Source: a virus
Taxonomy: Duplodnaviria > Caudoviricetes
Virus record (IMG/VR): IMGVR_UViG_3300005805_000129
Span: 1-49,116 of that record
DNA length: 49,116 nucleotides
Strand: one strand, 5' to 3'
Below, piece after piece: positions 8,725-44,112 of the stretch. How positions within the stretch are numbered: the first letter of the stretch is position 1; every line of letters starts with the position of its first letter. Both the position numbers and the translations under genes were made by a program. A model generated the notes under the pieces. The model ran no database searches. It had not been told where the DNA came from and saw only the letters and a program-made list of their open reading frames with translations.

Positions 8725-8746
8725 GTTATTATTTAAAGAGGACACA

Positions 8747-16424: not shown

Positions 16425-16775
16425 ATGAAAAAGATATTTGTTGTACTAGCCGTCTTGGTGGGCGGACTAGGTGTGGTTAGTCTCTTTAATCATGCTCGCG
16501 CCGATCTAGCCGTTTCAGCGATATATCCAGACTACAAACTGTGTCGGTCAGGCTACAAACTGTTAGGAGAAAAAGAGCAATTTTTAAAAAATATTGCGAG
16601 CTTCAATGAAAGCGAGGAGAAATACAGGAACACAATAGAGACTATAAACAGGGTAGAAGATAGTTGCGCTAGGTATTACAAGTACCTTGGCGAGTGGAGC
16701 GATCTCAAGATTAAGCCGTCGGACGACTTGGTATGGGCTTTGGTATCTCGATATGAGCCAGAAAAAATAAAGTAA
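16425..16775 (+). CDS. Small exported protein (moron-like)
   Basis: Signal peptide MKKIFVVLAVLVGGLGVVSLFNHARA. TATAAT at 16396-16401 lies upstream. Confidence 0.65.
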   Translation: MKKIFVVLAVLVGGLGVVSLFNHARADLAVSAIYPDYKLCRSGYKLLGEKEQFLKNIASFNESEEKYRNTIETINRVEDSCARYYKYLGEWSDLKIKPSDDLVWALVSRYEPEKIK

Positions 16776-16823
16776 TGGTTGACGCTGCAAGAATAACCAA
16801 GAAGACTATTTTTGGTTATTCTT

Positions 16824-19800
16824 ATGGCTCCGCAGACAAATGTTGTCGAAATCTTAATCCAAGCCAAGGATCAAGCCTCAAAGACTATTGGCGTATTAAG
16901 CGACTCCCTTGGAACTGCGGGAGCGGCAGCACAGTTTGCTCAGGGAAAAATAACAGCTTTCGGCGGAGCATTACTTGCAACTTCCGTATCGGGCATAAAG
17001 TCGCTAGGGTTGCTTGGCGATGCTGTTCAGTCAGTGCGATCGGCGCTAGACACTCCAGTTGGTCAAACACTAATTCAACAGCTTTCGACCGCTGCGGACG
17101 AAGCCTTAAACAAGACCGCAAGGCTTTCGGTGTTAGTCAAAGAGGTCTCAGGGGTCTCTAAGGATTTTGGTTCGGGTTTTACCTCTAGATCCTCAAGTAG
17201 TACTATTCAGCTTTTTGATCCTGCGGTAATGGGCAAGCAGCTTGAAAATGTCGTCATCAAGACTGCCGACACATTCTCAAAGACACTTGAACAAAAAATT
17301 AAGAACTCCGATCTTGCTACCGCTTTTGAGTCAAAACTAGGTGTGAGTATCGACTCACTGTCGGCACAGCTAGACAGTTCCTTGTCAGAAACACTGTTAT
17401 CGGGATTTGTAGGCAAAACACTACCTAGCGCCCTCGATACTGCACTAGGTAGTGTTTTTGGGGTGAATTTAACTTCAAAGATCGTTCAATCGATTCAAGC
17501 GGCGGGGAAGTCAAACCTATTGGGTGGAGTAGCTGGGAAGCTCGCTCAAGGATCGGTTGTCGGAGCTGCTAGAGAACTGGCAGTTGGAGAGTTAACCCCG
17601 AACCTTGAATCAGCCCAGTTAGCTGGCGCAAAACTATCTAACGCATTTGGGAAAAAGGTAGCTCAAGCCGTTTTAGGTGAAAGAACCCCTGCAAGCGCAG
17701 AGTTTAAGGAGATAGACGCTCAACTTGGCGGCGCTTTGGGCGATGTTATTGATCGACTTGGACAGAGGTTCCCCGACGTTTTAGAAAAAGGGAACCTGCC
17801 TATCGGCAAGCTGCTTGCCACCAAGTTAAGAGGGGCTGCACAGGTAACTTCTAAGAATGAACTCCAAGCGGCGGGGAATTTTCTTGTAGAGACGGCTTTT
17901 TCTAATCTGAGGAATATTAGGAGAAATCTTTTAGACGACGATCTTAATGCGGTATTTGATCTTGTTGTTGCGCCCGCTTTTAATGCCCAGAAAGACAACT
18001 TAAAGAAGCTAATCGGAATTGATGCAGCGACTTTCTCTGTTGGGATTTTAGATCCCCTCAAAAAGACTTCAAGGGATCTAGCTAAAGGCTTTGATGACGG
18101 GCTTGGTGCTGGGCTTGACAGTATTAAAGGTGGTGGCGCGATCGCTGAATATATAGCTCAGGTAGACGAGTTCCTTGGCGGCGGCATTACCGAAGCTCTG
18201 ACTCTCGCGGGGAATAAAGCTGCTTCTAGCTTTGCTGAAGGTTTTCGCGCTGCTGTTTTTGAAGAAATTACAGGTGTTCTCGATAACATTGATGCGTTTG
18301 TACTTGGTAGCCTAGAAAAGATTTCTCAAGTACCCCAGAAGCTTGTTCAGCCAATCAGCTTAGTTTCTTTGGTGTCAGATCCGATCGCTGGCGCTACAGA
18401 ACCATTAGAACTATTTGAACTGCTAGAGACGGGTGCGAGTAAAGCGACCAACGCTGTTTTTGAGGTTTCGCAGCGACTTACTTTCCTGTCTTTTGGATTG
18501 CAAGCTTTACAGGGGTTTGTGCAGAACGGGCCATTCCAGTTATTAATTGGGCAAAACGCAAGGCTTCAAGAACAGTTGCTAGCGACACAAGCCAGCCTCG
18601 TTGCGACGAATCGTATTATCCAGAATGGTGTAACAATATCCGACCCAACCAAGGCTATTCAGGCTCTTGGTCCTGCGGTTGAAGGCGCGATCGCGAAGAT
18701 TCGTAAAGACTCATTGGAATTAGTGGGGGTAACTTCAAAAGATCTCGTCGATTTGTTTCAAATCGTCGCGGGTCAAGCCAGTTCGATTGGGGCAAATCTA
18801 GATCAATCCGCAAATATCGTTACCTCGACGGCTGCGGCGCTAGGGACTCTGGGAGTGCCTTTGTTCCAAGCAAGGCAAGAAATAACCTCAATTGTTCAAG
18901 GAACTATCGACCAAAACTCTGTGCTTGCGAAGAATCTCAGCATCAATAATGAGATGGTCTCAAAGTGGAAGGCGCAGGGGACTTTTGTTGATGAACTACT
19001 CAGGAAGCTGGAAGCATTTAAGGTTGGCAACAAGCTCGCAAGCCAGACGATATCAGGGATCACGAGCAACATCCAAGAGGTATTTGACGAGATTGGACGC
19101 AAAGCTGGGGCTAAGTTCTTAGCTCCCATCGTTAAGGAGCTAGACGGTGTTTACAAATTTCTTGCGGCAAACCAAGATGTTATATCAACACAGGTCGAGA
19201 AACTGGTTTCTATTTTCTTTCGAGCTTTCGACAAGATTGTTGTTCTGTTTAAGGCTTTAAGCGATCCCATAGCCCAGCTTTTTGGCGCAATTCCAGAGTA
19301 TTTGGTGGAGTCATTAGCGGGGGCTATTACAGCCTTCTCAGATTCAGTAGTCTTTGCTATTAATATCCTTAAGCCAGCGATCGCGGTTTTCCTTGAGATC
19401 TTTAAGCTGGTGGCTCCTTTGGGCGGCGCATTTATTACCGCTTCTGTCGGAGCTAAAGTATTGTCGGCAGGAATATTGGGGCTAGGGCAAGGCTTTGGGT
19501 TCTTGTCCAAGATTCTTCCAGGGGTCGGTGAGTTACTGTTTATAGTTGACAAGAGATCGAATAGTCTCTTCAATCAGTTCTTGAACCTTACTTCTGTTCT
19601 CGGAAATAGAGGTGCTGCTGGATTTTTAACCTTTGCGGCTAACTTAGACAAGATACCTGGGGCAGCAAGCTTCGCAACGAAACAGTTGCAGGGACTACTG
19701 GGAGGATTGGCTCCTTTGTCAGGGTTCTTGGTTTCCCTAGCTCCACAAATCGGCGGGCTAGGTATCAAGTTAGCTGGTCTTGCTCAAGCATTTCCCGCTT

Positions 19801-22800
19801 TAAAAACCGTTTTTGAGAAAGCGTTTATTGGCGCGCCAGGGGCTTTACTCGTTCTTTCTCGTATTGTCGGAAAAAGCGAAATCTTTGGTAGCCTCGCGCC
19901 CTTAATCAACGACGCTTCAAAACAACTTGCTAAATTTACTGGGGTCGCCAGCAATGCTGAAAAAGCTAACTCGCTCTTTGCTAAGAGCTTACAACTTGGA
20001 GGTGCGGCGGCGAGGGAATTTGCTGTTAATAGCGTACTGCTAGGGGCTGGGGTTGGAGTTGGTTTTGTCTTTTTAGATCAGTTAATCCTGAAAAACAAAG
20101 GCTTACAAAAGATAATTCAGGACTTGACGGCAGCAATCCGTAAGTTTGCCGATACCGTTGGAGCTATATTAGCTCCCGTCTTTAAGTTGATTGGCGACAC
20201 GATATTGCCACTCTTTACTTTTGGGGAGAATTCAAACCCCTTTCAAAAGATAGTTGGAGGGCTTTTAATAGCGATCGCCGTAGTAAAACTTTTTGGTGGT
20301 ACGCTTTCTGCTGTTTTTAAGGGTGTTAACAACAGTATCGGAACCCTGAGTACTGGTATTTCAGAAACATTCACCAAGATTAAAAGAGCTAACGACAGCC
20401 TCAAAGAAATCTTGGGCTTAGCCAAGGAGGAGGGGAAGACAAAGACTTTTGTAGCGCCACTGCTGCCCAAGGACGAAGGATTAAGAAAGGAGGTTTCTCA
20501 AACAAGTTTAAGGGAAGCGCTTAAATCAAAAAAAGAAGAGCTAAGTTTGTTGGCTCAAGAAAAAAAAGCTATTCAGGAAAACAATCTAGCCAGAGCTTCT
20601 GAGCTTAGGGAAAAGGCATCCCAAGCTAGAGACGCAAAAGAGGCTGCGACAAGAGTATCCAAAGAGTTTAGGGAAGGAAAAACCGAAGTTAGTATTCCTC
20701 AAAAACTAATAACAGACAAGGATGTAGCCCAAGCAAAGCTTAGGGTGAAAGAAATTGAGAAGGATATTATTCGAGCGTCAAAAGAGGCTCGGATAAATGT
20801 CAATATAGATCCAGAAGCCTCCAAAATAGCAAAGGTTCAAAGGGAATACGCGATCGCCCAAGTCAATGCGGTTAAGGCATCCATCGAAGATCAGAAGCTG
20901 GTAGCGCCACTTAGTCAACTTGTTTTAGAAAAACCTCTAGCCCAGCTAGCAAAGATTAGGGATGCGGTTGGAGTTGGATTGCTAAACAGCTTCCTAAAAG
21001 CGGGAGATCAGGTTCTTGCTTTTTCGGGCAAAATCGACTCTGCTCTGATAAAGCTCAGTCAGTTCGATCTAGGCAAAACTCTTAGAAATATCGGATCTTT
21101 TGATGTAGGAGCTTTCGTCTCGAAGGGCTTTGAGAATGCTGTTGCTCAAGCAAAAGATACTGGGAAGGCGATCGCTGCATCTCTTTCTGGAAAAGGAGAA
21201 AAAAGTAATAGAAACTTCTTGCAAGAATTAGACGTTAGAGCGGGGCAATTTATTGATCCTAATCGAGCTGAAAGGCTTAAAACCCTAGAGGAATTAAAAT
21301 CCTTTAACGAAAAGCGAAAAGCCCTTGCTGCTGAAGCTAAAACCATAGATCCGAGTACAGGGTTATCTGCTAACGGTTCTAGTCTGGAGAAGATAGGGAA
21401 AGACGCTCAGAATATAGACGCTAATATCCAAAGACTTAGCGCTCAAGCCGAACAGCTCGACATCCCTGTTAGAAAAGCAGCGAAGGGGCTTGTCAACTCA
21501 TTCAAGAATGTTATTGCGGAGGTTGGACCAACCCTGCTACTGACGGCTCTGTTTGCTGGTATTACCACGTATATCGGGTTTATTGACGAACAAAACAAGA
21601 CAGTGGCGAACGGGGCTGAGAGGCTTGGAAACGCACTTAAAGACACTAAACAAAAGATTGATATTCTTAATGCGTCCCAAGGTAAAGACGCGCTTGGCGA
21701 GCTTAATAAACTAACAATCGCTAGGCAGAAGTATGTTGACGCTATTCGAGATCCAAAAATCTTGGTTGACGATCCTACCTTGAAACTTTATGATCGCCAG
21801 ATAGCCAAGCTCCAACAACTCAGGAGCTTGCAAGCAACTCCAGTAGATCCCGAAGCAAGAATCAGGGCAGAAGTGGAAAAAGAATACGAGCAAGACTTTG
21901 GCAAAAAATTCATAGCTGGACTTGGCTCTCTTTCTGGGACGAATGCAAAAGAATCCGACATTCAAACAAGATCCGCTGCCGAAGATCTTGCTCTTTCTAA
22001 GGTAAGGGCGGAGATCAACCTCCAAAAAAGAGAAGGACTCGCCCAGCTAATTGCTGAACAGGAAGAACTGATCCGACTGGAGCAGAAGAAGAACGTCCTT
22101 CAAGAGAGGGGTGATGCTGAAGCTGTCAAGGCAACTGAGTTGGCGATTGAGACCAAGAAGGAAGACATTGCCACTAGAATTGGAGATATCGATACTATTA
22201 TTCAGCAGATCGAGAGTAACAAGAAGGCTAGCAGTCAAATAGCCAAAGACCTGATCGGTGAAGCCACAAAACTAAAAGAAGCCTTTAAGTCTGTTGATCT
22301 CAAAATCGCTCCGATCGATTTACCTCGCATCGGGAGTGCGATTGAGCAGTCAACGGCAAAATATAAAGCCGCCGAAGAAGCTCTGGCTAGATCTGCGGGA
22401 GACCCTGCGATATTCAAGACAAAGATGACTGAACTCTTGGAGGCTTCTACGGTCTTGCAGGAAGCTGGTATTTTAAGGGCTGACGAGGTTGCTAAAAACT
22501 TTATCAGTATCGCCACCAACGTCTCCGCTGATCGCGACCTCCAAATCAAAGCTCAACAAGCAATTACTGAGGCATACAACAAAGAAGCTCAAAAGCGCAT
22601 TGCCACAATCGACGTACAGCAGGCAAAGATTCAAGCTTTGCTCGCCACTGGCAAGATCTCCGAGTCTGAGGCTAGCGTCCTGACAGGTAAAAACGAGATA
22701 GACAAAATTGACGCTCAGTTTGAGGCTGAGAAGAAATCCTTTGAGGCGAGAAAGGTAATCCGAGAGCGAAATGCCAAGGAGCAGCAAGAACAGATTGAGC

Positions 22801-25514
22801 GCGATCGTCTAATAGCCGAAGCTCAGGTCGCGGCGGCAACTGGCGATCCATCCAAGATTGAAGCCTTAAGAAAGCAACAAGCTCCTGCTCTTGATCAAAA
22901 GATATCGTCTCTAAACACGGACTTAAAGGCTGAGAAGGCGAAGAAAGATTCTTTGGATCAGATTAATAAGAGTGGTCTAGGTACGGCTGAAACTGTTCGG
23001 CAATTCAATGAGGTTTCTGTCTCGGTCAGTAACCTAGAAAAGCAGATTATTGGCATAACCACTCAGAAGGGTAAGCTAGATGATGTCTTAAAACTTAGTG
23101 AGGGATCTCAGAAGGATCTGGATGATGTTACCGCGCAGCTTGGCGGTACTAGCAAAGCTCTTGCTGAAGCTAGAGCAGAGAGAGGTCGATTACAGAAAGC
23201 CGTTGAACGGGGAAATACAACAACTTTATCTCCCTCGGAGACAAAGGATCTATTTAAAGACCCTAGAGTTGTTGCGGCGGCGAAGAGGGGTCAGTTCTTC
23301 GACATAAACAAAATTGTCGAAGAACGAAGGAATGCCGCCAACAAAAAGGTTGCAGAACTAGAAGCTCAGGAAAAAGCCCAACAAGCCCGTAAAGAGCAGA
23401 TAGAGAATATTCTCAAGAAAAATCCTGAAGCCGAAGCTGCGGGTAGGGCTTCTTTAGCAGCTTCCAAGAAGGCTTCCGCTGATGCTTCTGCTATTGCGAT
23501 CGCGCAGAGAAAGGAAGATGAAAGAAGGTTTGCTGAGGTGGAACAAAAAGCCGCAGCCGACAGAGCTAAAGCTCAAGCCGAAGAAGCGTTGCGAACTCTC
23601 GATTTCCGCATCAAGGAGACCCTCCAAGCCGAAAAGGTTGGTGAGACCCAGCGACTAGCGCAAATTGCCCAGCTTCGCAAGTCGGGGGTTAAGCTTGAAT
23701 CCGAAATCAAGCTTCAGGAGGCTGCTGAGCGGAAGCGTAGTATTACTCTTGAACTTCAGCTTGAACAACAGAAGCAGAAGCAGATTGAAGATCTTAAGAA
23801 GAAAGGTGTTGGTGTTAGCAGGGAAACCGAGAATGCTAATCGATTAAAAGTTGCTGAGCTAACCAAGCAGCTTGCCGAAGCTGAACTCGCAGCAATTGAG
23901 GGACTGGTTTCCGCAGTACGCGATCGCCTAGTCCTAGAAGCTCAGAAATACGCAGTCACAATCGAGCAGCAAAATCTCAAGCTTGAGCGTCAAAAGCTAC
24001 TATTTACTGCACTGGAAAAGAGCCTTGAAAATCAAAGCCGCCTGTCCGAGTCGGCAAATAAACTAGCTCAGTCCACTGTGGCTTTGCGCGAATCTGAGTT
24101 CAGTGCACTCAACAAGATTTACGATCGCCAACAAGCTGCTATCCGAAAGGCTGGTGGTGAAGGTAACTTTGCTGACCTTGAACTTGAAGAGAGAAAGCTA
24201 ATCCTTGCAGAAAAATTGGCTGTACTGAAGCTTAACTCCCTCAAACAACAGCAAAAATTTGAAGCCGAGTCCTTGGAGCGTGAAATCCAGAAGCGGGACT
24301 TATTGCTTGAGCGCAAGAAGGTCGAGAATGACATCGCGATCGCCAAGAAGAAGGTGGACATCGCCTCACAGGATGCTGCCATCAAAGCCGCCGAACTTGA
24401 AGTTAAATTGCGTCCCCAGTCCGAGGAGGCGAAGCTTAAACTTGCTCAAGCCAAACTTGGTCAGGAAAAGAATTTCCTTGAATTAGGTGGATTGCAGCAG
24501 GAAAAGGGCTTCATTGCTGACGAAGCGAAGGTTAATGAGATTGTTAATAAGAACGATCGCCAAGCTCTCGCTAACAAACAGCAGGGCGAAACCAATACGG
24601 CGATCGGTGATGTTATCGGCGCAACCAGAAATCCTGCACTGCAAGAGCGCCTACAACGAGAGCAGCTTGCTCGCCTAACCCAGAATACGGGTACAGCAGC
24701 ATTGACTACCACGGATGTAAGTAATGCCGTGGCTGCGGCAAGTCAACCTGTTAATGTTCGCGGTACTTCGTTTAGGAACCCCACCTCAGCATTGCTTGGG
24801 CAGGTTGAGCAGGGCGGAGTATTTACGGCTGCACCTGAACCTAAACCTAATAACGCGCCGTTCGCCACTAGTTTTGAGGAGTTAGCCAAGAAGTATCCCG
24901 ACAAGGGCGTGGCAGGCAGCTTTGAGGAGCTTAACAAGAAGTATCCTGCTCAAGCTAACTCGTTTGAGGGGCTTAACGCTAAGTATGGTGGTAAACCTAC
25001 GGAGGAAGCAAAGCCAGAACAGGCGATCATATCTTCGTTCGACAAGTTAATTCAGCAAATCGATGAAGGCTTCTCCAAGGTGTTGGTTGCTCCAGATCTC
25101 AAGGTTAAAGATTTAACCGCAGGATTGGAGGCAGAATTCAACCGTGTGTCAAAGCAGATCTCCGAGAACCCCGTGACGCTGAAGATCGACGATAAGGCAT
25201 TTGAGGAAGCTCAGAAGAAACTCGACAAGCCGATCGCCTTGCTTGACGAAGCTCAGCTTCAAAGAGCAGAAGCATTGGCGCAGGCTTTTGGTAGTCTTGG
25301 CGGCAAAGATCTTGTTCCTCAGCAACAGGGCAATCCCACGGGCGCAGCTCTGGGTACAAGTGGGAATATTACGGTTAATGCCCCGATCGCTATCAATACT
25401 CAAAGTAATATCAGCTCTGCGGCGGGTGTGGGCAACGATGTTCAGAAGGCTGTTAATGACACGCTTAATAATGTCTTGAGACGAGTAGCGGGTGTTACTA
25501 GCGGAGTGAGGTAA
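16824..25514 (+). CDS. Tail tape measure protein (~2,896 aa)
   Basis: N-terminal VVEILIQAKDQAS is typical of tape measures. It has a TMP core (ARQEITSIVQG..SQTISGITSNIQE), a hydrophobic Gly/Ala/Leu middle, long coiled coils and a C-terminal NITVNAPI. Confidence 0.9.
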   Translation: MAPQTNVVEILIQAKDQASKTIGVLSDSLGTAGAAAQFAQGKITAFGGALLATSVSGIKSLGLLGDAVQSVRSALDTPVGQTLIQQLSTAADEALNKTARLSVLVKEVSGVSKDFGSGFTSRSSSSTIQLFDPAVMGKQLENVVIKTADTFSKTLEQKIKNSDLATAFESKLGVSIDSLSAQLDSSLSETLLSGFVGKTLPSALDTALGSVFGVNLTSKIVQSIQAAGKSNLLGGVAGKLAQGSVVGAARELAVGELTPNLESAQLAGAKLSNAFGKKVAQAVLGERTPASAEFKEIDAQLGGALGDVIDRLGQRFPDVLEKGNLPIGKLLATKLRGAAQVTSKNELQAAGNFLVETAFSNLRNIRRNLLDDDLNAVFDLVVAPAFNAQKDNLKKLIGIDAATFSVGILDPLKKTSRDLAKGFDDGLGAGLDSIKGGGAIAEYIAQVDEFLGGGITEALTLAGNKAASSFAEGFRAAVFEEITGVLDNIDAFVLGSLEKISQVPQKLVQPISLVSLVSDPIAGATEPLELFELLETGASKATNAVFEVSQRLTFLSFGLQALQGFVQNGPFQLLIGQNARLQEQLLATQASLVATNRIIQNGVTISDPTKAIQALGPAVEGAIAKIRKDSLELVGVTSKDLVDLFQIVAGQASSIGANLDQSANIVTSTAAALGTLGVPLFQARQEITSIVQGTIDQNSVLAKNLSINNEMVSKWKAQGTFVDELLRKLEAFKVGNKLASQTISGITSNIQEVFDEIGRKAGAKFLAPIVKELDGVYKFLAANQDVISTQVEKLVSIFFRAFDKIVVLFKALSDPIAQLFGAIPEYLVESLAGAITAFSDSVVFAINILKPAIAVFLEIFKLVAPLGGAFITASVGAKVLSAGILGLGQGFGFLSKILPGVGELLFIVDKRSNSLFNQFLNLTSVLGNRGAAGFLTFAANLDKIPGAASFATKQLQGLLGGLAPLSGFLVSLAPQIGGLGIKLAGLAQAFPALKTVFEKAFIGAPGALLVLSRIVGKSEIFGSLAPLINDASKQLAKFTGVASNAEKANSLFAKSLQLGGAAAREFAVNSVLLGAGVGVGFVFLDQLILKNKGLQKIIQDLTAAIRKFADTVGAILAPVFKLIGDTILPLFTFGENSNPFQKIVGGLLIAIAVVKLFGGTLSAVFKGVNNSIGTLSTGISETFTKIKRANDSLKEILGLAKEEGKTKTFVAPLLPKDEGLRKEVSQTSLREALKSKKEELSLLAQEKKAIQENNLARASELREKASQARDAKEAATRVSKEFREGKTEVSIPQKLITDKDVAQAKLRVKEIEKDIIRASKEARINVNIDPEASKIAKVQREYAIAQVNAVKASIEDQKLVAPLSQLVLEKPLAQLAKIRDAVGVGLLNSFLKAGDQVLAFSGKIDSALIKLSQFDLGKTLRNIGSFDVGAFVSKGFENAVAQAKDTGKAIAASLSGKGEKSNRNFLQELDVRAGQFIDPNRAERLKTLEELKSFNEKRKALAAEAKTIDPSTGLSANGSSLEKIGKDAQNIDANIQRLSAQAEQLDIPVRKAAKGLVNSFKNVIAEVGPTLLLTALFAGITTYIGFIDEQNKTVANGAERLGNALKDTKQKIDILNASQGKDALGELNKLTIARQKYVDAIRDPKILVDDPTLKLYDRQIAKLQQLRSLQATPVDPEARIRAEVEKEYEQDFGKKFIAGLGSLSGTNAKESDIQTRSAAEDLALSKVRAEINLQKREGLAQLIAEQEELIRLEQKKNVLQERGDAEAVKATELAIETKKEDIATRIGDIDTIIQQIESNKKASSQIAKDLIGEATKLKEAFKSVDLKIAPIDLPRIGSAIEQSTAKYKAAEEALARSAGDPAIFKTKMTELLEASTVLQEAGILRADEVAKNFISIATNVSADRDLQIKAQQAITEAYNKEAQKRIATIDVQQAKIQALLATGKISESEASVLTGKNEIDKIDAQFEAEKKSFEARKVIRERNAKEQQEQIERDRLIAEAQVAAATGDPSKIEALRKQQAPALDQKISSLNTDLKAEKAKKDSLDQINKSGLGTAETVRQFNEVSVSVSNLEKQIIGITTQKGKLDDVLKLSEGSQKDLDDVTAQLGGTSKALAEARAERGRLQKAVERGNTTTLSPSETKDLFKDPRVVAAAKRGQFFDINKIVEERRNAANKKVAELEAQEKAQQARKEQIENILKKNPEAEAAGRASLAASKKASADASAIAIAQRKEDERRFAEVEQKAAADRAKAQAEEALRTLDFRIKETLQAEKVGETQRLAQIAQLRKSGVKLESEIKLQEAAERKRSITLELQLEQQKQKQIEDLKKKGVGVSRETENANRLKVAELTKQLAEAELAAIEGLVSAVRDRLVLEAQKYAVTIEQQNLKLERQKLLFTALEKSLENQSRLSESANKLAQSTVALRESEFSALNKIYDRQQAAIRKAGGEGNFADLELEERKLILAEKLAVLKLNSLKQQQKFEAESLEREIQKRDLLLERKKVENDIAIAKKKVDIASQDAAIKAAELEVKLRPQSEEAKLKLAQAKLGQEKNFLELGGLQQEKGFIADEAKVNEIVNKNDRQALANKQQGETNTAIGDVIGATRNPALQERLQREQLARLTQNTGTAALTTTDVSNAVAAASQPVNVRGTSFRNPTSALLGQVEQGGVFTAAPEPKPNNAPFATSFEELAKKYPDKGVAGSFEELNKKYPAQANSFEGLNAKYGGKPTEEAKPEQAIISSFDKLIQQIDEGFSKVLVAPDLKVKDLTAGLEAEFNRVSKQISENPVTLKIDDKAFEEAQKKLDKPIALLDEAQLQRAEALAQAFGSLGGKDLVPQQQGNPTGAALGTSGNITVNAPIAINTQSNISSAAGVGNDVQKAVNDTLNNVLRRVAGVTSGVR

Positions 25515-26188: not shown

Positions 26189-27316
26189 TCAAGCAGCAAT
26201 AGCAACCCTTGCGGATCGACTTACATCGCCTAGACTAAATGTTGATGCCCCAACATTTTTAATATTTATAGCAGCATTCTCATCTCTATTATTAACTTGC
26301 TGACAGCAAGGACAGCGCCACATTCTAGTTTCCATTTCCAGCTTTTCTAGAACATGACCACAATTAGAACAAGTTTTAGAACTTGGATACCAGCGACTAA
26401 TAAAGTGAACTACCTTATCTTTTTTGAGCGCTACCCATTGCAGGATTTCTAGGAACTCAGCAAAAGCCAAATCATGAACTTTACGTCCCCATAGCTTAAC
26501 CATCCCTTTGAGATTGAGATCTTCAAAGAATAGATAGTCATACTCATCGGTTAGTCTATGGGCAAGTTTCCAGAAAAAGTCCCTGCGTTGATTGCTGATA
26601 TCTTCGTACAATCTAGCCAGATCAAGTCTAGCTTTGTTGCGGTTGTGAGAGCCTTTACGCTTGCGAGAATGCGCTTTACTTAGTCGCCTAAGTGCTTTGA
26701 GATTGGCTTTTAGAAATAGAGGTGATGCAATCTGCTCGTTGTCTGAAGTAGTTAGGAATGTTTTTAAGCCAAAATCAAATCCTGCTATTTTACCAGTCTC
26801 GAATTTGTTCTCAGCTTGCCCTAACGCATCAGTTACCACGACTAGATATAAATCACCTGTAGGAAATCGCTTAATTGTGACAGTTTTTATTTTGCCTTCA
26901 ATATTCTGTGAGTTCCAGAATTGATAAGTTTTAGAGCCAATCTTTACACGATTACCGCCTAAAAATTTGTACCCTGCTTGCTTTAAGGTGAAAGATCGAT
27001 ACTTCTTGGTTTTCTTAAAACTAGGAGGTCTAACTCCTTTCTTGTGATGATCAAAAAATAACTTATAACCACGTTCTATCCTTTGACAAATATCTTGCAC
27101 AGCTTGAGAGCCAACAAGTTGCCAATATGGGTTTCTATTACGCAGTTTAGCAATATGTTTCTGAAGTTTTGCACAGTTTAAAGTTTTGCCAAACATCCTG
27201 TAATAGCGCTTATGCAACGCTATACAGTGGTTATAGATACTCGCAGACGCATTAATGGTGCGCTTTAAGTATCTATTCCGTTTGTGCTGATAAAACTTAA
27301 ATCTGTACGTTTTCAT
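26189..27316 (-). CDS. tnpB: RNA-guided endonuclease TnpB
   Basis: MKTYRFKFY start. RuvC motifs GFDFG, FEDLN and NRDENAA. Zn finger CSNCG..CPCC. Confidence 0.95.
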   Translation of the reverse strand: MKTYRFKFYQHKRNRYLKRTINASASIYNHCIALHKRYYRMFGKTLNCAKLQKHIAKLRNRNPYWQLVGSQAVQDICQRIERGYKLFFDHHKKGVRPPSFKKTKKYRSFTLKQAGYKFLGGNRVKIGSKTYQFWNSQNIEGKIKTVTIKRFPTGDLYLVVVTDALGQAENKFETGKIAGFDFGLKTFLTTSDNEQIASPLFLKANLKALRRLSKAHSRKRKGSHNRNKARLDLARLYEDISNQRRDFFWKLAHRLTDEYDYLFFEDLNLKGMVKLWGRKVHDLAFAEFLEILQWVALKKDKVVHFISRWYPSSKTCSNCGHVLEKLEMETRMWRCPCCQQVNNRDENAAINIKNVGASTFSLGDVSRSARVAIAA

Positions 27317-27366
27317 AGTTCCTATGATAGCATGATTTTGTAGATAATTACAAGCTATATACATAA

Positions 27367-27768
27367 ATGGAAACAAAATATAAACATTACAATCATGCAA
27401 TAGGACTGGCTACAGTACATTTGGTATGGATACCGTGCAGACGGAAGCGAGTGTTTGCGAGAAATGAAGCGTTAAAGCTCCGATGTGTTGAGATATTGCA
27501 GTCGGTCGCCAGTGACAAGAAGTGGTTTATCAAGGCTTTGGAGGTTGCTTCTGACCATATCCATTTATTGGTTGAGTACGATCCTCATCACTCAATTGCT
27601 CAAGTGGTCAAGGCTTTCAAGGGTAGAACTTCTAGGTTTTTAAGGCTTGAGTTTCCTGAATTATTGGTACTGCCTAGCCTATGGACTCATTCTTATATGT
27701 TTGATACCACTGGAAAAGTCAGTACTCAAAAAGTTTTGGAGTATATCAATGATCCGCATCATGGCTAG
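27367..27768 (+). CDS. tnpA: IS200-family HUH/Y1 transposase
   Basis: HLVWIP.RRK, DHIHLL (HUH), FKGRTSR, LWT.SY, EYI. Confidence 0.95.
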   Translation: METKYKHYNHAIGLATVHLVWIPCRRKRVFARNEALKLRCVEILQSVASDKKWFIKALEVASDHIHLLVEYDPHHSIAQVVKAFKGRTSRFLRLEFPELLVLPSLWTHSYMFDTTGKVSTQKVLEYINDPHHG

Positions 27769-27971
27769 ATAAATCTAGCTCTTTCGCTTGTATCCCCCGC
27801 TTGAAAGACGGGGGCTTTACTCTTCACCCTCGTAAAACGGAGAATGTATGACTATGAAGCAAAAGATATTTTTTATATTTGTTATAGAAAAGGCGATCGC
27901 ACCATGATTAGAGAGTCCGATATCACGTCGGGTAGCCACCAAGCTTCCTAATTCCGCAATAATCGAACATC

Positions 27972-28011
27972 AAAAAAGCGATCGCACATTAAATAAAGCG
28001 ATCGCCTTTTT
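27972..28011. terminator. Hairpin built from two HIP1 sites with A/T tails
   Basis: aaaaaagcgatcgc ... gcgatcgccttttt. Confidence 0.5.
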
Positions 28012-28020
28012 GATGCGCCA

Positions 28021-29472
28021 ATGATTTCGCTTTTACAATTTGATGGATTCGCGATCGCGCCAGATGGTATTCAGTTTGGCGAGGCGGAGTCTAGGGAATT
28101 CACCAAGCAGGACGGGGTTGCGCTCCAAAAATTCAAAGCCTATCGCCCAAACATCGGGATAACCATTACTGGGGTCTCAGATGCCGATGTGCTTTACTAT
28201 CAGTCCGCAGTAGAAGCGGGATCTGATTTTCGTGACAGCATTTCTTACGGTGGTCGCAGTTTGTCGGGATGTCGCCTCGTTTCCGCAGAAGTAACGGGTA
28301 TTTTGCAGGTAGGCGAAGTTCAAATAGTTGAGACTTTAAGACTGCTCTACGAAAGCAATACTTGGACGCACGGCGTAGCCTTCGACTACTTTAAAGGCTA
28401 TACGGTCGAGCTAGATGGGGTTCAGTTTGGTGACGGCGATTCGATTAGTGTTCAGTACGCCGATGCGGGCATAGTTCGCACTGCCGTAGTTAAGCGCCGC
28501 AAGGTGGCGATTACCCTGAAAGGTACTTCACCAGCCGATTATCAGAAATTTTTAAACCTACTGAACACCGACCTGCTTGCACCACCGACTGAAGACATTA
28601 CTATTGGCGGTATTACTTTAAGTAATGCAGTACTGACAGCAGTAACGCCAACCGCTTCAATCACGACAGGGTTGGGTAAAATTAGTGACTCTCTGGTACT
28701 AGAATATGAGACTCGAAATTATGATGTCCCGTTCTCTCAGGGGACTTTCGATGGCTACCCGATCGCGAATATCAATGTTGGCGCTGATACAAAGATATTT
28801 GTAATCAACCAAGCAGGGTCAGGTCGTCGCGAGGTTCCAACCTTTAAGCGGCGGATATCCTTTTCGGTAATTGGCACACCCGCAGAGTATGCGGTTAACT
28901 ATATCCATAAGGTTGAAAATGTTACTGACGCTCTTAATCCCGCCACCATCTCGTTAACTGTTGCTGGCTACACAATACCCTCGGCAATTCTCACCAATGT
29001 CATTCCCTCAGAAACCGTAACCGTAAGCGGGCGGGAAATACGCGCATCAACCCAACTCGAATTTATTAGCAAATACTGGTCTTACGATCAAACGGGTGCG
29101 GGCGCAGCAAATTTCTTTGATGGTTATGAAGTTGATTCAATCTCTTTTCCCGATGCCGACAACTCACAGATCTTGCTTAATCGCAATGGAGTGCAAACAC
29201 AGGTAGCTCTCGCTCGTCAATCGGTGACATTGGGATTATCAGGGGTTAAGGCGAGTGACGTGATTGCATGGCGATCGCTAGCTAACGCATCTCGTACTGC
29301 CCTATCAAAAGGGTCTACTCCCGCGCTAAGATCTATCAGCTTGCTCGGCGCAACATTAAACAACTGCTACCTGATTGGTGTTACGCCGTCAGGCAAGGAG
29401 TATTTTATTGGCGCGGAGAAGTTAATCGAGTCAATGACTTTGGTTTACGAATCACTTGACTGGAATTACTGA
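28021..29472 (+). CDS. Tail protein made of four tandem tail-tube-like (~120 aa) domains; Dit/tube-initiator candidate
   Basis: Four repeats, each with F[DK]G[FY]..(R/K)R.i.it..G..i...G.tL....L..V.P....L.[YF]E. The same pattern occurs in 39279-39677. It is the first structural gene after the TMP. Confidence 0.65.
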   Translation: MISLLQFDGFAIAPDGIQFGEAESREFTKQDGVALQKFKAYRPNIGITITGVSDADVLYYQSAVEAGSDFRDSISYGGRSLSGCRLVSAEVTGILQVGEVQIVETLRLLYESNTWTHGVAFDYFKGYTVELDGVQFGDGDSISVQYADAGIVRTAVVKRRKVAITLKGTSPADYQKFLNLLNTDLLAPPTEDITIGGITLSNAVLTAVTPTASITTGLGKISDSLVLEYETRNYDVPFSQGTFDGYPIANINVGADTKIFVINQAGSGRREVPTFKRRISFSVIGTPAEYAVNYIHKVENVTDALNPATISLTVAGYTIPSAILTNVIPSETVTVSGREIRASTQLEFISKYWSYDQTGAGAANFFDGYEVDSISFPDADNSQILLNRNGVQTQVALARQSVTLGLSGVKASDVIAWRSLANASRTALSKGSTPALRSISLLGATLNNCYLIGVTPSGKEYFIGAEKLIESMTLVYESLDWNY

Positions 29473-29486
29473 CACAAAACCAAAAC

Positions 29487-29534
29487 AAAAGTAAAGGGGT
29501 TGAACCAGAAAACCAGTTCAACCCCTTTACTTTT
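29487..29534. terminator. Strong terminator, 19-bp perfect arms
   Basis: aaaagtaaaggggttgaac / gttcaacccctttactttt. Confidence 0.85.
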
Positions 29535-29554
29535 ATTTCTTGGAAAGCTAGAAT
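29526..29554 (+). promoter_or_regulatory. Sigma70-like promoter TTTACT-N17-TAGAAT
   Basis: -35 at 29526-29531 and -10 at 29549-29554. The predicted start (~29561) coincides with the first base of the first stem of the structured region. Confidence 0.6.
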
Positions 29555-29560
29555 CGATTT

Positions 29561-30045
29561 ACCACAATAAAAACTACCATCCAAGTAAAATCCTTATGTA
29601 TTAGATATTAGCAGCTAAAAGTATAGTTTTGCAAGTATCGGCATAAAGATTTTACTTGGTTTGTGGTCAGCGCAGGATATTGGGTAGCTGTACTCCTGTA
29701 AGGCGAAACTTGCGATGACTCAGTGCAGAGCTGTTTTAAGCTTTACCCCGTGTTGAAAGAGCCTAGCAAAGCTCTTACTGAACTAGACACGGAGGCAATA
29801 TGTCGGTGGTGTCCGAATAGCGATCGGAGAGATGAGCGCAGTTAGTAGAGCCTGAAAGCAGCCACCCGCAAAACGAAGTTCACCCAGTAACAGCAGTTAC
29901 AGTGCAATGGGTTGATATATCTACTTAGGCGATTAAGTGAAAGGCTTAAAAATTGTTGAGTATTGTAATTACTCAGCTAAGGACTCTTCATGCTCAAATC
30001 TAGTGCAGTCATGAAATTCCGATCTGAATCAATACTCAATTAGAC
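29561..30045 (+). ncRNA. Candidate large structured non-coding RNA (~490 nt)
   Basis: No ORF of 60 aa or more. At least 12 nested stems are visible, several with G-U pairs on the + strand. It has its own promoter and an upstream terminator. Confidence 0.7.
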
Positions 30046-30056
30046 AAGATTCTAAG

Positions 30057-30908
30057 ATGTTTAAACTCGCTTCCAATGATTTGCCTACTACCGCACTACC
30101 TAGTCCATCTCAAACCAGCGCTAGTGTTATGAGGTTGTGGCAAGGCTCATCGCGTAGCATGGCTCCGATCGCTAGTTGTGACTACACAGTACTTTATGCC
30201 AACGCGATCGGATTGCAGCCCATCGTTTACCATGCAGCCAACCCTATTTATTCTGGACTTCACTACCGACACACATTCCCTTTCAATGTTGAAGCGGTAT
30301 CGGTAACAGGCTCAAACGAGGTTGAGCCAAGACTCGCTGTACCCAATTCGTTTTGGTTTAATGTTGATTCCAACACTGTACACATGTATGAAGGCAGTAA
30401 AGCAGTCAGTATCTCAGTAGATATGGCAGTGTCTGCTACCGCGATCGCTACTGGCAGTACAAACGTATATCGTATCGACACCTCGACATGGGGCACATTT
30501 ACCAGTCCCAGCCCCGTTGCCGTAGACGGTATTTTGTTTTTGTACTCGCCAACTCTCGGCGTAACAGGAACCTATGGTATTGATACCGATGCAATCTTTG
30601 TCTATCCAACAGCCCCGTTTCCCACTGGTGCGGCAATGCTGCATTTACGTCAAGATTTAGCATTGGAACCTGTCGCAGCGATCGCTACCTACGAACTGCC
30701 AGAATTTACACTCGTTTCCGACTTTGCGGGGCGCACTTATTTGAGAGCTTTAAACTTGCGATCGCCCGAAGTCTATGAATTTTTATCCGATGACGAAAAG
30801 TATGTGACGCTATACATGCCAATGACATTGTTTGCGGGATCTCAGGTTGAACAGCCAGCGCCTGTAAATGGCAGGCAGACGGTTAGCAGCATTACTTACA
30901 ATGCGTAA
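30057..30908 (+). CDS. Putative tail/virion structural protein
   Basis: Beta-rich 283-aa ORF in the tail module. Confidence 0.6.
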   Translation: MFKLASNDLPTTALPSPSQTSASVMRLWQGSSRSMAPIASCDYTVLYANAIGLQPIVYHAANPIYSGLHYRHTFPFNVEAVSVTGSNEVEPRLAVPNSFWFNVDSNTVHMYEGSKAVSISVDMAVSATAIATGSTNVYRIDTSTWGTFTSPSPVAVDGILFLYSPTLGVTGTYGIDTDAIFVYPTAPFPTGAAMLHLRQDLALEPVAAIATYELPEFTLVSDFAGRTYLRALNLRSPEVYEFLSDDEKYVTLYMPMTLFAGSQVEQPAPVNGRQTVSSITYNA

Positions 30909-31112
30909 TCACCAAGGCTTCTTTAAATAGCCAATCACACCAACAACCTCGCGCCTTTGGACTTTGACCCCAAAACAGCGATCGCCAAAACAAATATACC
31001 GCAAACAAACATCTCGGAATATGCAAGCCTATAGGGAAGATTTTGGGGTCATTAATGCAGCGATCTCTGTCAAATAAATTGATGTCGAGACTTTTGGCGG
31101 TGGAACTAAATA

Positions 31113-33572
31113 ATGTCTGCGATTACTCAGCAACTTACCAGCTATCCAAACCTTCCCTACCCGCTACAAGTAGGTAATTTGCAGTGGACGGACAAGCTCG
31201 AAGATTATCCATCTGGGACGATCACTTACAAGGGATGTACATTAGATCTCGCTAACGATATTACTACTAAATACCCCAACCTAACACCGATTACTATTGA
31301 GGGAATCGGCTTCGTGGTGATGCCTAGTGGTGTGTCGGTTAAGCGATCTCGCTATGGTCGCGGCGATATCGAAACCTATGAGGTCGTAATTAATCTTGAC
31401 TCGAAATGGAAAGCCAAATGTCAGCGCAAGTTTAGTGTCAGTCCATTCGTGCAACCCGATAATTTTTCGCGGTTTCGATATGCCACTGGGGTGAATGTTG
31501 CGGCGATCACGTCGTTCCTTGGCATCAACTATGTTGGACCTGCAATATTCTTCTCTCCAGACAATCTTGAAACAACATTCGAGGAAATCCTAAAAACTAA
31601 TTGCCGCAGATTAGGGTGCTTTGTACGGTTTTCGGATGTTGATGCGGTGAAGATGATTGCGATCAACAATATAGGTAGTTGGGCATTCCCCGACAATCTC
31701 GTAATTGACGACGGCAGCAGAAAACGGAATCCTGTATTACCAATCATTGACAATGTTGCTATCACGGGCAAGTTCTCTAAAGACCCCTTCGATCAGGAAG
31801 ATAAGTTATTACTCCCGATCAACCCGCAGACCGAAATAGTAATTCAAAATGGTGGCGGGGATACGGGAGATGACGCTAGTACTTTAAGTTATTTAGAGGC
31901 AAGTGGGAGGTTAGCGTCTCTAGACATGAACTTTGATGTATCTGGCCCTAAAAAAGTTTACACTCGCACCGAAATTGTTGATGGGGTTGTGCAGAGTGAG
32001 TTGACTCGCATCTACGGCTATAAATTTAGGGCGGTTGACGTTGCCGAGTTTCAAACCATTGAGGGGAAGAGAACTGTTTTGCGTTTAAACGGCTCTCCTA
32101 GTTTATGGTGGACTCAGGTAGAGGAGCAGGAAGTAACTTATGAGTACTCTTCAATTCTTAGCTACTTTAATGTTTATGCGACCTCTACGGGGCGGGTCGT
32201 CCCGATCTACATCAACCCCGACTCAGCAAATATTTTAAGGGGTAACGGATATCAAACGATCCTCGATAATGCCAAGTACTTGGTGGGTACAACGACTCGG
32301 GGTTGGAAATACGTCAGACTACAAAAAGAGACTGAGGGAAAATACGAGTCAATACACAGTACTCCACCTGCGGTTTCCGCAAACCTCTACAACACTTTTC
32401 GCTATGCGGCTGAGCTATGCGACTGGAAGAAGATCCCTGTTAACGGTAAGTCTGGATTTCAGATAGCCCCCCTGCGATCACTATACCCTGCGTCTACCCC
32501 CACGCCTTTCCAAGTTGAAGTTCAGAAGTATACCGACATTCCTCAAGATATTGCTTCTAGGGGGAATATTCCTCCTAGATATATCACTCAGAATGGGATA
32601 GCCGTAATAGATCCTGAATATGTTATTGGTATTGTTACAGCAAACCCAACGGACTCTGAGCCGTTTTGGATTAAGTCCGAGAGCAGTTTTAAAAGTTGTT
32701 TTGCTTACGCCAAAAGCCCTGCCTTTAACCCGTACCTGCCAACTGTAACGAGGAAGGCTGGAGATAATCGCCCTGAGTTTATTTTTGCTGGGGAAGAGTC
32801 TTACACGAGTGTGATCCGTAAGGTTTTTGACTACGACTCAAGTAAGCCTCGCACTTTTAGTACAGGAGCTTCTCCATTGGCTAGGGACAAGGCTGAGAAA
32901 TTCGAGGAATTAACAACAAACGATACTGCCCAAGGTCGGTCGTTTTTGGACGCAGCTCAGGACGCGGTTAAAGAAGTTAAAAGAGGTAAACCTCCAACGG
33001 CTCAGGTAATGCTCAAGAGGTGGGGAACAGCCAAGGAAAAGGCAAGGATTGAAGCAAGAGCGGACTACAGTGCTTACACCTATAACAAGTACTACGCTTC
33101 GTCAGATTTGATTGGGGCATATCCCGCCGATATCGTCCTGAAATACACCGATAACAGCGAGTTGAATCTGCCCTATGCCAATACTGTTGCCGAGGCAAAA
33201 ACCACACTAGAAACCGATTTGCGAATGGTTGCAATGCAGAACGTGATCGCATCGAAAAAGCTTGCATGGTATTATCCGTCGCTAAAGTCAGGCGATCGCG
33301 TCACATTTAGTAGTGGACAGCTAAGAATCTCTGGTGTCTCCCAATCCCTTGAATATCGGGGCTTGCAAAACGGCTCATTGGTTGTCGTCTCCGAGGGGAC
33401 GCAGGTAGAATGTGGCTACGATCAAGCACGAACCGTTAACATCTCGCAATCAACCTATAGTCGGAATAGTGATGGCGCGATCGCTCCCAATGTGCGAATA
33501 TCAAGCTTTGACACAAGTTTGCGTGGTAATTTTGTCTACAATGAATCACAACGCAGGAGTTTTAGGTCGTGA
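31113..33572 (+). CDS. Putative baseplate hub / tail-tip protein
   Basis: 819 aa. C-terminal YPSLKSGDRVTF..LRISGVSQSLEY resembles hub (gp27/Tal-like) ends. Synteny supports the call. Confidence 0.6.
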   Translation: MSAITQQLTSYPNLPYPLQVGNLQWTDKLEDYPSGTITYKGCTLDLANDITTKYPNLTPITIEGIGFVVMPSGVSVKRSRYGRGDIETYEVVINLDSKWKAKCQRKFSVSPFVQPDNFSRFRYATGVNVAAITSFLGINYVGPAIFFSPDNLETTFEEILKTNCRRLGCFVRFSDVDAVKMIAINNIGSWAFPDNLVIDDGSRKRNPVLPIIDNVAITGKFSKDPFDQEDKLLLPINPQTEIVIQNGGGDTGDDASTLSYLEASGRLASLDMNFDVSGPKKVYTRTEIVDGVVQSELTRIYGYKFRAVDVAEFQTIEGKRTVLRLNGSPSLWWTQVEEQEVTYEYSSILSYFNVYATSTGRVVPIYINPDSANILRGNGYQTILDNAKYLVGTTTRGWKYVRLQKETEGKYESIHSTPPAVSANLYNTFRYAAELCDWKKIPVNGKSGFQIAPLRSLYPASTPTPFQVEVQKYTDIPQDIASRGNIPPRYITQNGIAVIDPEYVIGIVTANPTDSEPFWIKSESSFKSCFAYAKSPAFNPYLPTVTRKAGDNRPEFIFAGEESYTSVIRKVFDYDSSKPRTFSTGASPLARDKAEKFEELTTNDTAQGRSFLDAAQDAVKEVKRGKPPTAQVMLKRWGTAKEKARIEARADYSAYTYNKYYASSDLIGAYPADIVLKYTDNSELNLPYANTVAEAKTTLETDLRMVAMQNVIASKKLAWYYPSLKSGDRVTFSSGQLRISGVSQSLEYRGLQNGSLVVVSEGTQVECGYDQARTVNISQSTYSRNSDGAIAPNVRISSFDTSLRGNFVYNESQRRSFRS

Positions 33573-39209: not shown

Positions 39210-39278
39210 TCGAGCAAGCTCCAATGAGGTTTTCGAGTATCTCGTGAAGATAAGGGAAACTTATTGGTAGCTACCACT

Positions 39279-39677
39279 ATGACTATTGCTATTACTCTCC
39301 AGTCAGTCCCGGATTTGCCTGGAAGAGTCTGCCAGCCAAGCGAACTGTCATTAGGCGAAGGCAACTCGATTGCCTTCAACGTTAACTATGCAGGAGATAT
39401 CACTCCTTTTAACGCTGCGAAACGAACCATCCAGTACTCTGTTAGTGGCTTGTCTGGAACAGAGGTTACAACCCTTCAATCTACTGCTGAAGCCAACCTC
39501 AGCAATTTGGTGAAGAAGACTGACCCCAGCTACTCAGACATTTATGTTTCTGGTTTCTTACTCGAAAAATGCTTTTTGCGATCGGTCAAGCCTTCGGGTT
39601 CTTTGACCGTGGATTCTGAAGCGATCGTTGAGAAGACCGACTTGGTATACGAAACTAAGGGTCGTTACCTCGTTTAA
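39279..39677 (+). CDS. Putative major tail tube protein
   Basis: 132-aa single copy of the domain repeated in 28021-29472. It ends LEKCFLRSVKPS..IVEKTDLVYE, like tube-fold proteins. Confidence 0.55.
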   Translation: MTIAITLQSVPDLPGRVCQPSELSLGEGNSIAFNVNYAGDITPFNAAKRTIQYSVSGLSGTEVTTLQSTAEANLSNLVKKTDPSYSDIYVSGFLLEKCFLRSVKPSGSLTVDSEAIVEKTDLVYETKGRYLV

Positions 39678-39693
39678 TTCTGATCTGAATAAC

Positions 39694-42876: not shown

Positions 42877-44061
42877 TCACCGCGCTGAAGCAACGGTGAT
42901 TCTTAACGCATCACTGAGACTTGCTACCGAAGCAGTCTTATTGTCTCTCCGCGTTCGTTTAGAGTCGTGGCAGTTCCCTATCCCGACTTTGTCTATATTT
43001 TTAGCAGCATTCTCATCGCGGTCATGGGTAGTACCACAATTTAGGCAAGTAACAGTCCTGATACTGAGATCTAACTTGCCCCATTGGTAGCCACAATGCG
43101 AACAGACTTGACTGGTAGGTTCCCATCGACTAACCGTTGAGAAAGTTCTGCCATACTTTTTGGATTTAGCCTCGCAAAGAGTTCTAAATTCTCTCCATCC
43201 TTGCTGACTAATTGCCCGTGCAAGTTTGCGATTTTTGACCATGCCAGAAACATTGAGATCTTCTAAAGTGATTGCTTGGTTTTTGCGTACCACTTCAGTA
43301 GAGACTTTATGCAAAAAATCGCTTCTAGTATCAGCAATTTTGTTGTGTTTTTTTGCAATTCTCAAACGAGTTTTATTCCGTCTGTTAGAGCCTTTAGACT
43401 GCCTTGCTAATTTGCGCTGTAGCTTTCTAACCTTTTTATCCAGTTTGGAGTAATCAGGGCTTTGAAACTTTTCACCCGTACTGAGTACAGCAAAAGTTTT
43501 GATTCCAAGATCGATCCCTACTGATGGATTAATTGGCTCTATATGTTCTGGTTCTATGTCAACTACAAAGCTAAGAAAATATCGGTTAGCGCAGTCTTTA
43601 ATCACTGTTACAGAGCTAGGCTCCGATGGTAGTTTTCTAGACCATACTGGTTTGATATCTCCTATCTTGGCTAAATAGACGCTATCACCCGAAAGAGAAA
43701 ATGCTGCTTTGGTAAACTCAGCAGATTGATTATTGGTTTTCTTTTTAAATTTTGGAGATCCAACTTTTTTACCTTTGCGCTTTCCTTTTAGAGAATTAAA
43801 AAAGTTCCGATAGGCAACATCTAAATATCTTAGGGACTGCTGCAAAGGTACAGCCGACACATCTTTAAGCCATTGCCTCTCTTCAGTCTTTTTGGACTGA
43901 GTAAGCATAGCCGAAAGCTTGTTAAAGCCAATTGCCTTACCAAAAGCCTTGCACAGCGCTAGAGCGTCATTCCAGACCACACGGACACAGCCAAACAATT
44001 GAGCTAAGCTCTTTTGCTGTTGGTCAGTTGGGTAAAATCTGTATTGATATCTAGCTTTCAT
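42877..44061 (-). CDS. tnpB: RNA-guided endonuclease TnpB
   Basis: MKARYQYRFYPT..LFGCVRVVWN. RuvC motifs GIDLG, LEDLN and HDRDENAA. Zn finger CSHCG..CLNCG. Confidence 0.95.
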   Translation of the reverse strand: MKARYQYRFYPTDQQQKSLAQLFGCVRVVWNDALALCKAFGKAIGFNKLSAMLTQSKKTEERQWLKDVSAVPLQQSLRYLDVAYRNFFNSLKGKRKGKKVGSPKFKKKTNNQSAEFTKAAFSLSGDSVYLAKIGDIKPVWSRKLPSEPSSVTVIKDCANRYFLSFVVDIEPEHIEPINPSVGIDLGIKTFAVLSTGEKFQSPDYSKLDKKVRKLQRKLARQSKGSNRRNKTRLRIAKKHNKIADTRSDFLHKVSTEVVRKNQAITLEDLNVSGMVKNRKLARAISQQGWREFRTLCEAKSKKYGRTFSTVSRWEPTSQVCSHCGYQWGKLDLSIRTVTCLNCGTTHDRDENAAKNIDKVGIGNCHDSKRTRRDNKTASVASLSDALRITVASAR

Positions 44062-44112
44062 TGCTTGTGCTAAAATTGGTCTGTAGTTTTATTGTACATC
44101 GGTCTGCTTAAA

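Follow-up and report, generated by a model that had tools for sequence, protein, structure and literature searches.

Large, ornate non-coding RNAs are few in number and their functions have long been an open question; those of phages, as a kind, are longer than 350 nt, contain many covarying helices and pseudoknots but no ORF, and are made as discrete, abundant transcripts. The closest described systems are ROOL (RF03087) and GOLLD (RF02032). ROOL is large, phage-borne, multiply pseudoknotted, without a known protein partner, dispensable in at least one host and assembled as an octameric cage of RNA alone. According to PMC12286853, its covarying ‘tertiary’ pairs proved to be inter-chain, and for both ROOL and GOLLD the covarying long-range pairs include bridges between chains. 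GOLLD is a stand-alone gene of lake phages in which conserved blocks are combined with variable inserted domains, many members being longer than 800 nt and variable in their 5' half. The HEARO/OMEGA RNAs (IscB, IsrB) are large, structured and tied to an endonuclease gene; group I introns (RF00028) combine a comparable size and a pseudoknotted core with a phage habitat and a nearby endonuclease. Finally, in phage T4 (PMC2988022 and PMC3984707) the gene for the SegB nuclease occupies a locus of RNA genes (the tRNA region), excluding the alternative allele.

The stretch of DNA analysed here (the ‘window’; all 49,116 nt of IMG/VR record IMGVR_UViG_3300005805_000129) derives from a tailed phage, and its 49 kb encode a major capsid protein, a maturation protease and a 2900-aa tape-measure-like ORF. 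A cyanobacterial phage had been proposed from the letters alone, and this can be narrowed to a Pseudanabaena phage; the window's TnpB is 93% identical to that of a Pseudanabaena MAG, making Pseudanabaena the likely host. Two IS605-type elements (TnpA plus TnpB) are seen at 26189–27768 and 42877–44514, the former separating the tape-measure-like gene from the 483-aa gene of Table 1, and missing from the close relative G001. We also see a Thoeris anti-defence Tad2-like protein within the head gene block (8672–8995; PF11195, E 4e-23); a repeated tail-region domain, with PHROG 35535 matched by three stretches of 28021–29472 and one of 39264–39677; and a 128-aa ORF (16775–17161) that overlaps the start of the 2900-aa ORF (16812–25514) in a different frame, an overlap that presumably resembles the frameshift arrangements of tail-assembly chaperones.

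As first reported, the gap at 29473–30056 holds no plus-strand ORF of at least 60 aa (the longest being 40 aa on the plus and 59 aa on the minus strand), and neither ARAGORN nor Rfam finds a tRNA or tmRNA in the window. We are highly confident that a gene for a structured non-coding RNA lies within this gap (Table 1). Comparison of homologs, collected by pattern scans, profile scoring and BLAST, supports the central claim of the original prediction; namely that the plus strand of the phage encodes a large ncRNA with extensive structure. Instead of the ~490 nt suggested for it, the conserved unit is ~447 nt long: homology stops at 30007 in the alignment and, independently, divergent DNA contigs stop there in two of the three runs with cover. 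No terminator is visible after this point, as had been noted.

All 14 pairings originally listed are present in the window (29581–98/29642–59 at 17 of 18 positions), and the stems that we now call P1, P3, P5, P7, P9 and P11 hold in the homologs. Two others (29956–65/30030–39 and 29987–92/30010–15) extend into the non-homologous flank and are not conserved, and the pseudoknot put forward at 29844–49/29920–25 holds, in that register, in the window copy only. Reading from the 5' end, the elements follow in the order P1 (enclosing the first strand of pseudoknot PK1 and the hairpin P2, which is reduced to a short hairpin in PA-SR01), P3 (with the second strand of PK1), P4 (around a conserved unpaired block), P5 (enclosing P6 and the first strand of pseudoknot PK2), P7 (around a variable domain), the second strand of PK2, P9, P10–P12, and the tail with P13. 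The unpaired block, at 29700–29727, is the most conserved in sequence and has no consistent pairing partner.

An unbiased scan for helices fully paired in all eight aligned copies ranks PK2 and PK1 first, then P5, P7, P9, P4, P1 and P11; neither pseudoknot figured in the original list. Seven helices carry at least two compensated columns, against a mean of 0.3 (maximum 1) in 30 column shuffles; a control that understates the background, with the minus strand still yielding three such helices. In an independent MAFFT alignment of eight copies, 15 of the 50 named pairs are changed on both sides and 98% of cells are paired, compared to 1–3 two-sided pairs and 33–44% of cells in slid controls, the basis being about five independent lineages with helices picked from the same sequences. 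Folding energy by itself is weak evidence: none of 100 shuffles of 29555–30056 folds as well as the plus strand (z −3.28), yet the minus strand does equally well (z −3.73), so that energy does not give the strand, and homologs reach only weak z-scores, from 0.0 to −1.9 with 12 shuffles each. A count of G-U pairs (43 versus 0 A-C) was discarded as a test of strand, being circular.

Table 1. Predicted features of the RNA locus; positions are those of the window unless a locus is named.
Feature	Position	Strand	Remarks
Upstream flanking gene, 483 aa, tail region	28021–29472	+	PHROG 35535; 96% identical in G001
Cassette of 542 bp: hairpin terminator, promoter, RNA gene	29473–30014	+	Missing from close relative G001
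A-tract/stem/U-tract hairpin, predicted bidirectional intrinsic terminator	29488–29533	.	One per RNA copy; compensated stem changes in homologs
Predicted sigma70-type promoter	29526–29554	+	−35 29526–31 within hairpin U-tract, 17-nt spacer, −10 29549–54
Predicted non-coding RNA, ~447 nt	29561–30007	+	442–474 nt in 8 copies
P1, 29561–67/29661–67, around variable long hairpin P2 (29581–29659)	29561–29667	+	3/7 P1 pairs compensated
Pseudoknot PK1, 29574–78 with P3 loop 29683–87	29574–29687	+	3 compensated columns, four compensated forms
P3 hairpin, 29672–77/29694–99	29672–29699	+	Homolog alignment
P4, 29699–703/29741–45, around most sequence-conserved block	29699–29745	+	Homolog alignment
P5, 29748–53/29787–92, around variable P6 and PK2 5' strand	29748–29792	+	2/6 pairs compensated, all cells paired
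Pseudoknot PK2, 29779–84 with 29877–82	29779–29882	+	4/6 columns compensated, four compensated forms
P7, 29801–03/29868–70 and 29805–10/29861–66, enclosing variable domain	29801–29870	+	3/9 pairs compensated, all cells paired
P9	29882–29912	+	30-nt hairpin insertion in PA-SR01
Three-way junction: P10 29924–27/29978–81 (invariant), P11 29935–38/29944–47 (GAAAG loop), P12 29955–60/29972–77	29924–29981	+	
Conserved 3' tail, closed by the short hairpin P13 (29991–93/30005–07)	29982–30007	+	No U-tract
Near-palindromic motif, outside the RNA	30015–30029	+	Retained in G001 empty site (its 16 nt)
Downstream flanking gene, 283 aa, no family	30057–30908	+	90% identical in G001
DUF559 endonuclease gene with hairpin-rich 5' leader, in the RNA's promoter slot	L233: 3024–3596; L247/L248: 2501–3067	−; +	

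Upstream of the RNA, the reported 19-bp-arm terminator is present, its arms pairing at 18 of 19 positions in the register 29488–506/29515–33, and the hairpin recurs with compensated stems in all copies except that of PA-SR01. The promoter read as TTTACT-N17-TAGAAT is likewise present and conserved in homologs, but a scan returns 6 such sites against 5.1 expected by chance, and the site alone is therefore not significant. Its geometry is more telling: a TAnAAT-type −10 box sits exactly 6 nt before P1 in 8/8 aligned copies, although those 6 nt themselves vary, and a TTTACT −35 box with the N17 spacing is found in 7/8, supporting the predicted start near 29561 on the RNA's own conserved promoter. 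The notion that hairpin and promoter form a generic repeated cassette (an idea we take to be PeSL-like) was rejected: 8 of 10 records have a single one for each copy of the RNA or of the endonuclease gene, and G001 and PA-SR01 have none.

Four metatranscriptome runs, chosen for containing the stretch, gave five contigs over 27800–31500; four within 29663–29929, and one in the upstream gene at a depth similar to those in the RNA gene. Given this preselection, and with contigs giving neither strand, ends nor level, they show presence in RNA libraries only. Two contigs (X17 and X19) represent a ~90% variant from another phage, with paired changes at 29814/29826 and on both sides of PK2; a third (X15, depth 2) has one side of PK2 changed and one pair broken.

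Ten distinct full-length variants of the RNA were recovered, with identities to the window copy of 86% (four copies), 69%, 66% and 59%. Their carriers fall into three lineages (G000/G001, G004/G005/G476 and PA-SR01), with G476 sharing just 2/130 ORFs with PA-SR01 and 4/130 with the window; G004 has two paralogous copies. The most distant copy, reached through BLAST with the L021 copy, occupies an unannotated 900-bp gap in the cultured Pseudanabaena phage PA-SR01, where it lies behind a TATAAT box on the minus strand of MT234670.1, at about 88193–88653; its presence in the cultured pair PA-SR01/Pseudanabaena KCZY-C8 makes expression, structure and assembly directly testable. In a ~80-kb phage lineage (L020, L021, L113, L207), we see an A-run 20–28 nt after the 3' end of the RNA, a feature not seen in the window.

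BLASTN with the window copy gave no match among phage and plasmid records, an exact 22-mer search of GTDB returned nothing, and the cyanophages kac65v151 and PaV-LD have no match to the RNA. Matches from the pattern scans were mostly due to chance, with 5/33, 4/17, 6/52 and 11/13 genuine after profile scoring; a further scan gave 12/15, plus the endonuclease locus described below. Cyanobacterial genomes (0/71 with model R2, 0/401 by BLAST, 0/151 with R3) are to be read as ‘not found’ rather than ‘absent’, few candidates being scored per genome and the sets holding no positive control; among 71 Pseudanabaenales genomes, 3 have BLAST matches of 33–42 nt only, and the one examined (L211) is without a profile match. 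CL131, with just 14–16-bit matches whose two halves lie 25 kb apart, was rejected.

Rfam gives no gathering-level match in the window, and cmscan of 29300–30300 at E up to 10, a search proposed with the original prediction, returns neither ROOL nor HEARO. E-value scans of the window region, four homolog loci and the PA-SR01 locus produce sub-threshold matches only, nearly all on the terminator hairpin. At E up to 10, the ROOL model matches 0/4 records (its positive controls being silent too) and that of the conserved GOLLD 3' domain 0/4 (controls matching below the cut-off in 5/14); the group I model has no match at the element in four records (controls over the cut-off in 2/14). Of the two class assignments offered originally, a new class is supported and membership of ROOL or GOLLD is not.

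The likenesses are nonetheless considerable. The RNA shares with ROOL the properties set out above, dispensability in at least one host included, but is shorter (447 nt versus 574 model positions), lies outside a tRNA island, belongs to cyanophages and would form multimers only putatively. It resembles GOLLD in its lake-phage setting, stand-alone gene and conserved blocks with variable inserted domains, yet its eight measured copies span 442–474 nt, and its 5' and 3' halves are both conserved and tied together by long-range pairs. The tRNA-island context of both families is mostly missing here: a tRNA lies near the RNA in 1 of 12 loci, 2.2 kb away, and those of PA-SR01 are 30 kb off. HEARO/OMEGA RNAs differ in that the endonuclease at our locus is of the DUF559 type and stands in place of the RNA, not beside it; nor is there an Rfam match, or an IscB, IsrB or TnpB partner next to the RNA among the loci read. 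Unlike a group I intron, the element is intergenic behind its own promoter, matches no model and reveals no P7-like core by eye.

With more than 350 nt, many covarying helices plus pseudoknots and no ORF, the predicted RNA has the size and structure of a large ornate phage ncRNA; apparently a new and uncatalogued family within that known kind, smaller than ROOL or GOLLD, with a comparative structure resolved to two knots. An earlier description was not found in the literature open to search without subscription. The main text of the PA-SR01 paper, in its accessible part (PMC10286775), contains none of ‘noncoding’, ‘non-coding’ or ‘ncRNA’; candidates in an IMG/VR survey are at most 151 nt long in the accessible portion of that source (PMC10690425), six of whose supplementary files hold no match to these records, though fragments may stand in the other three.

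Turning to the surroundings, the RNA occupies at least six gene neighbourhoods; at every locus read it lies between genes, preceded by a promoter of its own, and interrupts none of them. That the neighbours vary, with the next gene convergent in 2/9 loci checked (L207 and L209), argues against a role in cis. The complete 134-kb relative G001, whose flanking genes show 88–89% nucleotide identity, has only 16 nt between the stop of the upstream gene and the next ATG, and no RNA element was found anywhere in its genome. Both junctions of the cassette carry TGA (29470–72 and 30012–14), forming a 3-nt junction repeat. Either the cassette was gained in the window phage or it was lost in G001; no empty-site joint was found in the window's own population in three DNA runs with cover. 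The position of the RNA in the tail operon is incidental.

A second type of exchange is seen in G478 and G479, whose flanks match the G005 RNA locus at 94–96% identity as far as the −10 box and then again downstream, the RNA being swapped for a 2.3-kb block that begins with a gene for a 188-aa DUF559 endonuclease. In G475, the DUF559 gene stands behind the same hairpin-promoter, and the 3'-terminal 33 nt of the RNA, inside which its stop codon falls, are kept along with the downstream flank. The protein has 13 close relatives and the JGI name very-short-patch-repair endonuclease; we take DUF559 to be a Vsr-like/EDxHD nuclease. The endonuclease was found in 0/12 records searched (11 with the RNA; most of them fragments), and the 5' half of the RNA in 0/3 endonuclease records. 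This allele is consistent with intronless homing, with a free-standing endonuclease acting at the locus of an RNA gene, by analogy with SegB, although DUF559 cleavage is here a proposal. Together with the near-identical pairs of phages with and without the RNA (G000 versus G001; G005 versus G478/G479), an endonuclease allele at the same promoter offers comparisons for both the role of the RNA and the gain and loss of genes. As for a phage protein that might travel with the RNA, G476 and PA-SR01 have only two ORFs in common, neither of which is lacking in the RNA-less G001 and G479.

On balance, we lean towards a stand-alone, trans-acting ornate RNA that would work like ROOL and GOLLD without being a member of either. 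The upstream hairpin would stop incoming transcripts, insulating the cassette, and host sigma70 polymerase would start at ~29561, meaning that the RNA could be made without phage proteins. The ~447-nt product is predicted to fold unaided into a compact, doubly pseudoknotted particle (the lack of a co-occurring phage protein pointing to folding without a dedicated phage partner), with its 3' end at ~30007 probably arising, given the lack of a terminator, from trimming back to the folded core. It would then probably act in trans on a host component, as is thought for ROOL and GOLLD; the partner-less block at 29700–29727 could, at a guess, bind the target. By analogy with ROOL (PMC12286853), PK1 and PK2 might conceivably pair between chains and so build a multimer, but no conserved palindromic loop is found among the aligned copies, leaving multimers without direct support. 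The distal tail genes would rely on read-through or on the motif at 30015. The RNA would be accessory, spreading by recombination within a shared host and being displaced in some phages by the DUF559 gene, which takes over its promoter. A bolder version is a new class of RNA-only machine, ~450 nt long, in which PK1 and PK2 would link chains to build a small cage, or would make up a catalytic core unlike known ribozymes. This we consider rather doubtful; if true, such a machine would have reached unrelated phages that share one host, and would be valuable enough for a homing endonuclease to target it specifically and hijack its promoter.

The reading nearest to a trans-acting ornate RNA, and overlapping it in all but assembly state, is that of a decoy or scaffold, monomeric and dependent for its folding on a host protein (e.g. 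a defence nuclease, toxin or ribosomal component), which it would neutralise early in infection. A host-type promoter, an accessory and patchy distribution like that of counter-defence genes, the conserved unpaired block, weak folding energy and the lack of a phage partner all suit this; thirteen helices and two knots, however, would seem to exceed the needs of a simple decoy, and no protein partner has been identified, such that we hold it to be rather unlikely. Less probable again is a selfish or catalytic element, be it a new ribozyme or a descendant of an intron, which would pass from phage to phage, at times with the DUF559 endonuclease assisting its mobility. Many insertion sites, the two copies in G004, a clean indel with its 3-nt repeat, and the endonuclease at the same promoter in three records would all be expected of such an element, but the RNA interrupts no gene in the loci read, matches neither group I nor any other Rfam model, and is never found in full with the endonuclease (in the 12 and three records given above).

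The alternative offered with the original prediction, a structured leader or antiterminator for the distal tail genes, does draw on the missing 3' terminator, a next ATG just 50 nt past the 3' end, and a cassette hairpin that would otherwise cut the operon. It has fared badly: the downstream genes vary among loci and can be convergent, G001 joins the same two tail genes without the RNA, and a separate, oriented motif precedes the downstream gene; we judge it improbable. An OMEGA-like scaffold, serving an RNA-guided nuclease in trans and using the 3' flank as its guide, would account for a 5' start that is fixed and a 3' flank that varies and often has an A-run behind it, and has a precedent for endonuclease-linked RNAs in HEARO (PMC12286853). 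TnpB genes are indeed present in both the window and PA-SR01, but also in the RNA-less G478 and G479, while none was matched in the complete, RNA-bearing G476; furthermore, every match of a 20-nt flank elsewhere in 10 phage records has at least 4 mismatches, and Rfam returns no HEARO match. This reading seems very improbable. An ordinary spacer with chance stems would explain both a promoter scan at chance level and strands that fold alike, but is already contradicted by homologs that, down to 59% identity, retain element order, promoter spacing and compensated pairs, and we give it next to no credence.

The near-palindromic motif that lies just past the RNA recurs at four sites in the window (2896–2910, 12726–12740, 30015–30029 and 39676–39690), giving 8 strand matches against 0.3 expected. 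Being 14–15 bp long, it is found at 11 sites in G001 and at none in eight other phage records. Sites are mostly at gene boundaries, oriented with transcription and often followed by a CACC-like tract. As a repeated, gene-oriented motif confined to one phage lineage, it is best seen as a phage regulatory site outside the RNA, with that at 30015–30029 likely serving as a late promoter or operator for the distal tail genes.

Some further features were seen around the homologous loci. Two tRNA T-arm-like repeats, for which ARAGORN makes no call, lie ~2.3 kb downstream of the RNA in L208 (5817–5850 and 5914–5947), with a tRNA-Pro at a similar place in L210 (11125–11198). The same two loci (L208: 9461–10138; L210: 7026–7712) encode, divergently from the RNA gene, a protein of 225 aa that contains two CxxC motifs, belongs to no Pfam family and, we take it, resembles the Csf1-like proteins of type IV CRISPR systems.
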